The notes under the pieces are model-generated. The model ran no database searches, had not been told where the DNA came from, and saw nothing but the letters and a program-made list of their open reading frames with translations. The position numbers and the translations under genes are program-made. A DNA stretch of 28,096 nucleotides, from the NCBI GenBank assembly GCA_036443875.1, contig JAZFZF010000231.1, forward strand, positions 1-28,096. Reading direction: 5' to 3'. The DNA comes from Nitrososphaerales archaeon (GTDB lineage: Archaea; Thermoproteota; Nitrososphaeria; Nitrososphaerales; UBA213). This document shows positions 16,623 through 19,787 of this stretch, piece by piece (the stretch's first letter is position 1; every line of letters begins with the position of its first letter).

Positions 16623-17488
16623 TGGAAGACGGCAAAGCAAAGGTCACAGTAAATGAGATCGTTTCCATGAAGAAAAAAAGTAAGATAACTATGCTTACTG
16701 CATATGATTTTACCACGGCAACGCTCTGTGACAAGGCTGGTGTTGAGGTGTTGCTGGTCGGTGATAGTGCAGGCATGGTGATGCTTGGTTACAATACGAC
16801 TACACCTGTAACGATGGAAGAGATGCTACTATTTTGCAAAGCAGTTGCAAGAGCAAGCAGACGTGCAATGGTAGTAGCTGATATGCCCTTCATGTCATAC
16901 CAAGTTGATGTTACTGAAGCTGTTAGAAACGCATGCAGGTTTGTTAAGGAGGCTGGTGTTGATGCCGTCAAGATCGAGGGAGGGGAAGAGATTGTTGATA
17001 CAATAAAAGCCATTGTGAAAATTGGTGTGCCTGTTATGGGCCATATCGGACTTAAACCACAAACTGCTCTGCTTTGGCATGGGTATAAAGTGCAGGGAAA
17101 AGACAAAGAATCAGCGCTTCGACTTATACATGACGCCGTAGCACTTGAGAAGGCTGGTGTTTACTGTATTGTCCTTGAAATGGTAGTGACCGAAGTTGCA
17201 AAGATAATTACTGATATGGTGAAGATACCTACAATAGGAATTGGTGCTGGAAATGTTTGTGATGGACAGGTTCTTGTCATTCATGATCTCCTAGGCTTGT
17301 ATGAGCAAATGACGTCAAAGTTTGTCAAAAGGTATTTGAAATTATCGCAGGAAATTACAGAAGCATTACTATCCTTCAAGAATGATGTAACAAATGAAAG
17401 ATTTCCTTCTGATGAAAATACCTTCCATATGGACAGTGATGAATTTGATAAGTTATTGAAAGAATTGGGTGTGATGAAGAATGAATGA
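16622..17488 (+). CDS. panB: Ketopantoate hydroxymethyltransferase
   Basis: MLTAYD, LLVGDS.GM, ADMPF, VKIEGG, MGHIGL.PQ and IGIGAG..CDGQVLV motifs. Confidence 0.97.
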   Translation: MEDGKAKVTVNEIVSMKKKSKITMLTAYDFTTATLCDKAGVEVLLVGDSAGMVMLGYNTTTPVTMEEMLLFCKAVARASRRAMVVADMPFMSYQVDVTEAVRNACRFVKEAGVDAVKIEGGEEIVDTIKAIVKIGVPVMGHIGLKPQTALLWHGYKVQGKDKESALRLIHDAVALEKAGVYCIVLEMVVTEVAKIITDMVKIPTIGIGAGNVCDGQVLVIHDLLGLYEQMTSKFVKRYLKLSQEITEALLSFKNDVTNERFPSDENTFHMDSDEFDKLLKELGVMKNE

Positions 17489-18716
17489 ACATCCTTCAAA
17501 AGACATCGTCGATTCTGATGGAGAAGAGCTAAAGGGTAAGAAATTTGTTTTGTGTATTAGTGCAAGCGTCGCTGCCTATAAAGCAGTTGATCTAGCAAGA
17601 TTACTCATGCGTCATGGCGCCGATGTTCATACTGTTATGAGCAAATCATCGAACAAACTTTTGACGGCAGATCTTATGAAATGGGCTACTGGAAATGACG
17701 TAGTGACCAAACTAACTTGGAAATTGGAACACATACAGCTGGCAAATTACCGCATGTCTGATTTAATTCTATACTATCCATGCACTGGTAATACATTGAG
17801 TAAGATTGCCAATGGAATTGATGACACACCAATTACCTCGATTGCAAGCGTTGCACTGGGGTCAAAAATTCCCATAATGATAGCGCCTGCTATGCATGAG
17901 GCTATGTATGAGAATCCAATTCTGAAGGAGAATATAGAAAAATTGAAAGAGATAGTCGAATTCATTGAACCCCATATCATTGAGGGCAAGGCTAAGGTGG
18001 CAGAACCAGAGGCTGTTTTGGCAGCTGTTTTGGCCAAGTTCAAGGACCCTTCAAAACTGAAGGGGAAGAACGTTCTCATCACTGCAGGCGCTACCATTGA
18101 ACATATAGATCCTGTAAGAGTAGTAACAAATCCTGCTTCAGGCAAGTTTGGTGCTGCACTTGCCGAAGAAGCGATCAGACTCGGTGCTAATGTTACGATG
18201 ATTTATGGTTACGGTAATGCTGTTATACCAAAAAATTTACGAGTGATTAAAATAAGTACCAGCAGTGAAATGATGAGTACTGTAATTGATGAATTGCAGA
18301 AGAATAATTATGATATTGCGATTATGACGGCGGCTGTTTCAGACTTTAAACCTGAAAATCCAAGCCCTGAAAAAATAGATACCGAAAGTAATCCACAACT
18401 CACTATTAAATTGATAACTACCAGCAAGATAGTAAATCAGATCAAGAAGATCGCTCCTACGATATTCTTAATCGCCTTCAAGGCTGAGTGCAATGTTAGC
18501 AATGAGCAAATGGTGCAAACAGCATATTCTAAAATGAAGGAATGTGATGCTGACATAATAGTAGCCAATGACGTTGGAAAAGAAGGATCAGAGATGGGTT
18601 CGGATACTATCGAATTGTTTATTCTCTCTAAGGAAAAAAGAATTATTCACCTGCCCTTACAGACCAAGAAAAATATGGCACAAAAATTGTTCGAGCAAGT
18701 ACCGTTACAAAGTTAA
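17481..18716 (+). CDS. coaBC: Bifunctional phosphopantothenoylcysteine decarboxylase / ligase
   Basis: ASVAAYK, PCTGNTLSKIANGIDD, APAMH, ITAGAT.E.IDPVR.VTN and AAVSDF motifs. Confidence 0.96.
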   Translation: MNEHPSKDIVDSDGEELKGKKFVLCISASVAAYKAVDLARLLMRHGADVHTVMSKSSNKLLTADLMKWATGNDVVTKLTWKLEHIQLANYRMSDLILYYPCTGNTLSKIANGIDDTPITSIASVALGSKIPIMIAPAMHEAMYENPILKENIEKLKEIVEFIEPHIIEGKAKVAEPEAVLAAVLAKFKDPSKLKGKNVLITAGATIEHIDPVRVVTNPASGKFGAALAEEAIRLGANVTMIYGYGNAVIPKNLRVIKISTSSEMMSTVIDELQKNNYDIAIMTAAVSDFKPENPSPEKIDTESNPQLTIKLITTSKIVNQIKKIAPTIFLIAFKAECNVSNEQMVQTAYSKMKECDADIIVANDVGKEGSEMGSDTIELFILSKEKRIIHLPLQTKKNMAQKLFEQVPLQS

Positions 18717-18799
18717 GGAATCTTTTTTCATACTTGGTAAATGAAGTATTAAGATTTGTGAGCTCATTATTATCTCATTTGGCTTGATTCAACTGCATA

Positions 18800-19038
18800 A
18801 GGGTTGGGAGAAGGAAAGGTCATAACATGGTTCATAGACCGGTGCTATGTCTCGACCGTATCCCGAGCTGTTGAAGAACTTGTCCATCAACCGAATGAAT
18901 GTAGTCTCATGCTAGCTAGGACGTGAAATAAAAGAGAGGTACATTTGTGTAGATGTGAGCAAGAAGAGATACGCGGTATGCATAACGGATTAGTAAGGAT
19001 TCGTTATAGATGAATTGATGCCCTGTCTCATCACATAA
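18800..19038 (+). mobile_element. IS110-family relic: structured non-coding segment plus decayed DEDD recombinase N-terminus
   Basis: 18925-19017 reads EIKERYICVDVSKKRYAVCITD**GFVIDEL. This matches the IS110 N-terminal pattern (GxDVSK, first catalytic Asp) with tandem stops at 18991-96. Hairpins lie upstream. Confidence 0.65.
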
Positions 19039-19180
19039 GCCATTCCAACTTTGAGTTATATTAAAATTCAATGAAAGGAGGTTTCCCGGAGAGGATTTAT
19101 GAACTAATTCTCACCGCATATCAATAGATAAGTAACTTAATACCTACGTTTCTTATAATTTGACATGGAATCATCTACTA

Positions 19181-19230
19181 GAGTAGGTTGACAATTTCTC
19201 TCATCAGGAGAAGAACTGATCTACCTACTC
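19181..19230. repeat. 50-nt imperfect hairpin
   Basis: GAGTAGGT pairs with ACCTACTC (8 bp), and inner TTCTC pairs with GAGAA around a 7-nt loop. Confidence 0.55.
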
Positions 19231-19290
19231 ATCTTATTTGTTGTTATGGTTTGCTAATATATTATTATTACACGTCAGTAATGATCTTAC

Positions 19291-19317
19291 CGATAGTCTG
19301 ACCCTATCAGATTATCG
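19291..19317. repeat. 11-bp hairpin
   Basis: CGATAGTCTGA-cccta-TCAGATTATCG, with one G-T pair. Confidence 0.55.
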
Positions 19318-19487
19318 TCTCGTCTATAGTAATGTGTACAAGATATAGTGAATATATTTACAATATTAATCAAGTTTGCATAGTATACAAAAAATGCATT
19401 TGTTATACAAAGCATAATCAATCATTCAATGAAATCCGATACATACATACAGGTAGATAACAATAAAAAAAGTAGGTTATTATTACC

Positions 19488-19787
19488 TCAACTAAATGCT
19501 ATTGACGGAATCTCTTGTGATGAATTCGAAGGAGCTGATGGCTCTGGCAGAATTTCAGAATCAACGCATATGAGTGTATGACCGATCGAGACACCTCTTA
19601 CAGCAGAAATCGTCTGCAAAGCAATGTCAGATACATGCTTCAAGTCTCTTCCTTCTACTGTAACTAGTATGTCCGCACGACCTATTACTCTACATGCTTC
19701 TTTGACACTTTCTGACCTCCTTACGTTCTCAACGATCTTCTCAACATCGCTTCCTGGTTCGATATGAACCTCTATGTAGGCTTTCAA
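19488..19787 (-). CDS. Stand-alone Lrp/AsnC ligand-binding (RAM) domain protein
   Basis: KAYIEVHIEPG..V.E...V.GRADILV.V pattern, no HTH, TTG start, and TTTAAA 32 nt upstream. Confidence 0.8.
   Translation of the reverse strand: MKAYIEVHIEPGSDVEKIVENVRRSESVKEACRVIGRADILVTVEGRDLKHVSDIALQTISAVRGVSIGHTLICVDSEILPEPSAPSNSSQEIPSIAFS

Follow-up and report, generated by a model that had tools for sequence, protein, structure and literature searches.

Probable debris of an archaeal IS1111-type element downstream of coaBC: a decayed bridge RNA and the start of a recombinase gene

Insertion sequences of the IS1111 family are marked by sub-terminal inverted repeats of 11-13 bp with 7- and 3-bp extensions and by a guide order in which the top-strand guide comes first (Siddiquee et al. 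2024, PMC11187229). The seekRNAs of this family include those of ISEc11, ISPa11, ISKpn4, and ISPst6, and the long non-coding region usually lies downstream of the recombinase gene, with ISMtsp17 as an exception in which it lies upstream (PMC11187229). A non-autonomous form has also been described: MITEPpu9, the partner of ISPpu9, carries the small RNA gene ssr9 between IS110 ends and unlinked to a transposase, circularises, and has been proposed to move in trans (PMC12288879). Here, a 28,096-nt stretch of archaeal DNA (the window) was analyzed, for which a preliminary description had proposed that positions 18800-19038 hold the dead start of an IS110 recombinase gene preceded by a structured bridge/seekRNA that might still be usable in trans. 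The identification holds, and the suggestion of continued use is unsupported. Positions 18803-19017 are recognizable from their sequence as a fragment of ~220 bases of an archaeal IS110/IS1111 element, composed of the bridge RNA and the start of the recombinase gene, and it is very probable that this is a true bridge RNA homologue which is now a dead fragment.

The window is a contig of a 1.27-Mb assembly that is 76% complete. The parts of the relic and coaBC are on the plus strand. The relic lies in a 771-nt spacer between coaBC (17481-18716; TIGR00521, 356.9 bits; PF04127 and PF02441), the last gene of a pantothenate/CoA cluster and itself outside the element, and a convergent Lrp/AsnC gene. 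The RNA is on the coaBC strand and starts 87 nt past the coaBC stop, directly 3' of which a T6 tract (18723-18728) could act as an archaeal terminator and so reduce transcription from coaBC into the relic. A sigma-70 promoter scan is uninformative here, the host being archaeal. None of the eight family genomes searched (0/8) has IS sequence 3' of coaBC. The coaBC-Lrp gene order is kept in two family genomes with spacers of ~220 and ~330 nt, such that the window spacer is ~450-550 nt longer, and these two spacers are too diverged to align for the empty site to be located. Beyond the relic, an AT-rich stretch of ~450 nt (19018-19480) is of unexplained origin; no homologue of 19010-19460 was found in 300 genomes of the class, and three weak BLAST matches to the spacer region are attributed to chance.

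When the spacer was compared by BLAST to 60 related genomes, positions 18823-19016 matched G007, a genome of the same family, at 73% identity, with additional matches in G044 and at five places in G001. The G007 match abuts and enters an intact 350-aa recombinase gene (P0001) downstream, and thus the upstream segment is common to intact IS110 copies in other genomes, as had been anticipated. Over 211 columns, the relic and the intact G007 element are 73% identical. A DNA profile constructed from 58 intact elements (nhmmer) matched the window once, at 18822-19017 (63.7 bits, E 1.8e-20), covering element positions 53-256 of 1281 and taking in RNA and codons together. The homology stops at ~19017, short of the 19038 originally given, and neither DNA nor protein profiles detected further element homology in 18717-18821 or 19018-19500; these profiles also gave no support to a possible continuation at 19047-19057 or to a 'MESS' motif at 19166. 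Rfam returned no match in the window at the gathering score and only chance matches (E > 1) near the relic, which is single-copy in the 76%-complete assembly. Even the closest intact relative shares just ~73-79% identity with the relic, so some of the sequence differences may predate inactivation.

The coding portion of the relic retains the first ~28 codons of a DEDD recombinase (18934-19017; identified by the reading frame, nhmmer, and a clade protein profile). The frame (18934-19020) reads ERYICVDVSKKRYAVCITD, two stop codons (TAG-TAA at 18991-18996), and GFVIDE; it has no in-frame start codon, and a Shine-Dalgarno remnant (18918-18926; profile alignment) precedes it with one change from the family consensus AGGAGGTGA. 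The first catalytic Asp is retained (18952-18954), the conserved Gly before it has become Cys, and the remaining ~320 codons and the right element end are gone. The dead recombinase start was therefore correctly recognized in the preliminary description. In the Pfam test by which that description would have been refuted, the 33-residue peptide alone matched nothing, PF01548 included (E ≤ 1), but it is too short for this test. It does align with positions 2-30 of the clade profile, at 11 bits (E 5e-5 over six frames). The nearest intact recombinase, P0001, matches PF01548, PF02371, and NF033542 at 117, 87, and 287 bits, respectively.

A search with P0001 retrieved 100 loci, with Nitrososphaerota and Bathyarchaeia among the named records, and 58 of these are distinct elements with both ends (median 1283 bp). 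Intact elements have a left end of ~170 nt that carries the RNA, a DEDD recombinase of ~350 aa with the motif GL-P----SG, and a right end of ~62 nt, with a core TG at each junction (AG in a few). The sub-terminal inverted repeats have a median of 11 bp perfect (11.4/13 matches), with extensions of 7 bp on the left and 3 bp on the right. Some 30 nt ahead of the RNA, the left end has a TATA-like stretch, a possible promoter for it. In a 43-member alignment, the family RNA (~115-125 nt) consists of an outer stem around two stem-loops. Both contain a large internal loop, and the target loop precedes the donor loop. Almost all of the cells in this structure are paired (99%), compared to only 20-42% in slid controls, and both-sides changes occur in 36 cells versus 10.5 when shuffled, counts that are inflated by relatedness; the family helices are independently recovered by RNAalifold. 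A nested or four-way pairing of two GGTC/GACC hairpins, drawn from four sequences, was discarded, with the second hairpin covarying locally and the first constant.

The loops of intact members behave as guides. Both strands of the target loop vary and track the insertion site: among 38 distinct guide pairs, the 3' strand copies the left flank and core (5.03/6 versus 2.18 shuffled) and the 5' strand complements the core and right flank (4.45/6 versus 1.85), with 0 of 10000 shuffles as good, while the guide order of IS621 scores at the level of chance (1.6/6 and 1.8/6). The conserved donor loop corresponds to the ends of the element itself, with a 3' strand (ATGAGTG) that equals the right end and core and a 5' strand (TA(A/G)AG) that complements the start of the left end. 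By the criteria that Durrant et al. set out (PMC11208160), the family RNA therefore qualifies as a bridge RNA. Based on its ends and guide order the clade is assigned as IS1111-type, a label used here in place of typical membership because the RNA is upstream, not downstream, of the gene. One subgroup that targets GTGTG repeats (L067, L070, L065, L093, L095, and related loci) has the register between 5' guide and right flank shifted by one base, which lowers its score in a fixed register and possibly reflects a shorter core pairing.

Against this family, the window copy (18803-18916) is recognizable and degraded. A covariance model built for the bridge RNA, as the preliminary description had suggested, matched it at 23.9 bits (E 3e-5), below the 97-136 bits of intact members left out of the model, some of which are close to training sequences. 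From the 5' side, the tentative outer stem (18803-18808 with 18911-18916; covariance model and pair analysis) probably retains 5/6 pairs, two of them wobble. The closing stem of the target loop (18819-18822 with 18853-18856) keeps 3/4 pairs in its best register, and the covariance model favors another register in which 3/4 pairs are broken. Within that loop are a 6-nt remnant of the 5' target guide (18823-18828), the complement of core and right target; a hairpin (18829-18840) with 4/4 pairs, one a wobble, at pair probabilities of 0.5-0.6, the one helix of the family fold whose formation is still predicted; and the 3' target guide (18841-18852; by alignment), which corresponds to the left target with the core TG at 18848-18849 and is of full length but substituted. 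The donor loop is closed by a stem (18867-18871 with 18901-18905) with 5/5 pairs, three of them now G-U, and contains the 5' donor guide (18872-18879; by alignment), which complements the element left end in intact copies, a hairpin (18880-18893; covariance model and pair analysis) with 2/5 pairs broken, and a 7-nt 3' donor guide (18894-18900) that has a 4-nt deletion within the ATGAGTG motif. Two of the four guide strands are thus shortened where length is near invariant, as the 5' target guide is 11-12 nt and the 3' donor guide 11 nt in 43/43 intact members.

Pairing has eroded as well. In the best register, the 24 family pairs of the relic are 13 Watson-Crick, 7 wobble, and 4 broken, compared to intact members in which 35/43 have no broken pair and the others have at most three. 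In the relic, the family pairs have a mean predicted probability of 0.10, lower than in every member (minimum 0.24, median 0.91). Positions conserved in ≥90% of members are kept at 44/61 (72%) in the RNA and 22/29 (76%) in the dead coding part (Fisher p = 0.80), and with this equal decay no extra protection is apparent for the RNA. At conserved stem positions, the pair-preserving change C>T occurs in 5/16 cases and the pair-breaking G>A in 1/19 (p = 0.07), a weak hint that the fold may have outlived the gene for a time. Positions 18800-18930 fold no better than shuffles (z = +0.13), a test that is weak because intact members reach only -1.1 to -1.7.

The fold that was originally drawn for this segment survives in part. 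Its motifs are placed correctly (GGTC 18818, CATAG 18833, CTATG 18845, GACC 18854, GTTGA 18870, and TCAAC 18887) and GGTC/GACC approximates the true closing stem of the target loop, but CATAG/CTATG and GTTGA/TCAAC are not conserved, pairing in 43% and 41% of cells across the 43 members versus 99% for the family structure, and their pairing would sequester guide bases. The expectation that the loops would match an insertion site after coaBC was not borne out, as both element ends are gone and a search of the surroundings of the relic found no junction that fits one of the guides. Intact copies exist elsewhere, as outlined above, but the ends of the relic itself are undetectable: the end profiles score -12.6 and -9.8 near it, at shuffle level, whereas the lowest scores among members are 16 and 21. 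A candidate left end at 18780, proposed from 9/13 matches in one pairwise alignment, has a shuffle-level score and a flank that mismatches the guide. TGTTATG at 19242 complements the 5' guide remnant, but it is not preceded by a right end, and chance alone would produce 7-mers of this kind.

Could the relic nevertheless yield a functional RNA, either whole or as a seekRNA limited to the target loop, that is used in trans by a recombinase encoded elsewhere? Trans action of bridge RNAs has been shown experimentally (PMC11208160) and short seekRNA forms with only a target loop exist (PMC11187229; bioRxiv 10.1101/2025.10.25.684509). In the relic, the hairpin of the target loop is retained, as is the 12-nt 3' target strand, 20/24 family pairs can still form in the best register alongside the slight C>T bias, and the RNA lies on the coaBC strand shortly past the stop. 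However, either half of the 5' target guide is lost or the closing stem is broken, the 3' donor guide carries its deletion, and the TATA-like left end is lost, with the T6 tract placed after coaBC. The only other IS110-type gene start in the 76%-complete assembly, which has zero PF02371 matches, is on contig C95 (C95:1-412, minus strand; L001), in an element cut by the contig end that has a left end, an intact bridge RNA, an open recombinase frame, and a 3' target guide that matches its own left flank. With 34% identity to P0001 across 64 aa, this element belongs to a distant subfamily, and it has its own intact RNA (56 bits) and another left end (TG-AAGAG versus TG-ACTTT); because of that different end, even an undamaged donor loop of the relic would not fit it. 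Of the family-type ends in the genome, the best lies within a 517-aa host ORF on C16; neither this end nor another on C20 is accompanied by an RNA or element match. While a cognate intact copy could be unassembled, given the 76% completeness, the assembly yielded neither a cognate recombinase nor a matching donor end, and use in trans is considered very unlikely. An equally slim chance is given to a target loop that is still transcribed and serves as a stand-alone seekRNA or a decoy for a resident IS110-type recombinase; if true, the guide would have been orphaned in nature and would redirect or dampen an element resident in the genome.

Two further origins can be weighed on the same evidence. 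The relic may have begun as a non-autonomous, MITE-like derivative, with ends and RNA but hardly any or none of the gene, which moved in trans and decayed later. MITE-like elements of the same RNA family are present in G046, G079, and G047 (see below) and the window spacer is longer than those of the two syntenic relatives, but the right end is undetectable downstream, a second copy is absent from the assembly, and the relic keeps a Shine-Dalgarno motif and 28 recombinase codons, both of which are missing from the MITEs; this origin is judged highly improbable. Less probable still is that the host has taken over the RNA, perhaps as a regulatory element at the 3' end of the CoA operon, in the fold first drawn. 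The position 3' of coaBC and the presence of those local stems in some predicted folds are in its favor, but the sequence is absent after coaBC in every family genome searched, its fold is no better than shuffles, it has no Rfam match, and its decay is equal to that of the pseudogene. Because its guides are truncated and the element ends and nearly all of the enzyme gene are gone, the relic is almost certainly dead and not a working orphan RNA. The explanation that best accommodates these observations is that an IS1111-type element of ~1.28 kb, with an upstream bridge RNA and a 350-aa DEDD recombinase, would have landed between coaBC and Lrp. By analogy to IS621 and ISEc11, the recombinase of the living clade would use the guide pairings to cut out a circle and integrate it at the site that the guides specify. 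In the window copy, deletions would then have taken the left end and everything past codon ~30, and the remaining fragment would be decaying neutrally. The homology, the covarying structure, the guide-flank covariation in relatives, and the lesions of the window copy were observed directly; we infer how recombination proceeds, the order of the deletions, and the lack of expression of the relic.

Gene-less elements with their own bridge RNA occur in related genomes. The family RNA model identified elements of 315-333 bp in G046, G079, and G047 that have both ends, intact loops, and guides that match their flanks, and the relic fails each of these comparisons. A 332-333-bp element (L154:1457-1790 (G046:C14), L168, L153, L160, L164 (G079), L161/L195 (G046:C1)) has no recombinase gene and both IS1111-type ends, with an inverted repeat of 14 bp in L154, and its guides agree with the sequence on either side of it (GGCTC|TG|TTAA) and with the right end of the element. 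There are ~9 near-full-length copies in G046 and at least three in G079, 70-93% identical, and an autonomous 1439-bp relative in G046 (L207) has similar ends and target and a donor guide that differs together with its own right end. This looks like a true bridge-RNA-carrying MITE; no description of it was found in the literature searched, the nearest precedent being MITEPpu9 (PMC12288879). In G047, L149:1454-1768 (G047:C17) is a 315-bp gene-less element with both ends, a well-formed bridge RNA (73 bits), and flank-matching guides. The MITE target, GG(C/T)TC|TG|TTAAC, seems to be a terminal repeat of IS6-family elements (L161:853-1297 and the flanks of L154 and L168): an IS6 transposase fragment (NF033587, E 7e-20) begins ~50 nt past one target copy and an inverted second copy lies downstream of others. 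Autonomous members L042, L063, L068, L085, L113, and L119 also use this target, and the guides of the window could be decayed versions of guides to it. Additionally, L150 (G043:C1:678698-678817) has a bridge RNA (64 bits), a left end, and a Shine-Dalgarno motif, but what follows is not recognizable as a recombinase gene. The G043 genome is complete and contains several intact elements, and L150 is a better candidate for use in trans than the window copy.

The relic itself is ordinary transposon debris of little importance. The clade to which it leads, distributed among the Nitrososphaeria and Bathyarchaeia, has a compact bridge RNA of ~120 nt with a nearly constant donor, and its at least 38 natural guide pairs, with targets that can be read directly, make it a candidate archaeal programmable recombinase. 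The MITEs that carry their own bridge RNA merit follow-up more than the window locus.

Compared to the described systems, the clade resembles IS1111 in the sub-terminal repeats and extensions, a DEDD recombinase of ~350 aa with the GL-P----SG motif, and a top-strand guide located 5' of the bottom-strand guide; it differs in being archaeal and in an RNA that is upstream of the gene, and the window copy differs further as a fragment without ends. The clade is like IS621 and the IS110 group (Durrant et al. 2024, PMC11208160) in that the left end carries the RNA, which precedes the recombinase gene and runs in the same direction, the target loop comes before the donor loop, a 2-nt core lies within the guides, and the target is variable while the donor is conserved. 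Conversely, relative to the element its guides come in the opposite order, its outer stem encloses both loops where in IS621 a 5' stem-loop precedes them, and it has long sub-terminal repeats and the core TG. The marks of the IS110 (IS621-like) group, namely a lack of long sub-terminal repeats and a bottom-strand guide that comes first, are thus not those of the clade. MITEPpu9/ssr9 has both end boxes and occurs in several copies, unlike the relic with no ends, one copy, and broken guides. ISMtsp17 shares with the clade an IS110-like upstream non-coding region (PMC11187229), such that an IS1111-type clade with an upstream RNA is an exception already noted in the literature, and this combination of IS1111 ends and guide order with an IS110-like RNA position bears on the movement of the RNA between element ends.
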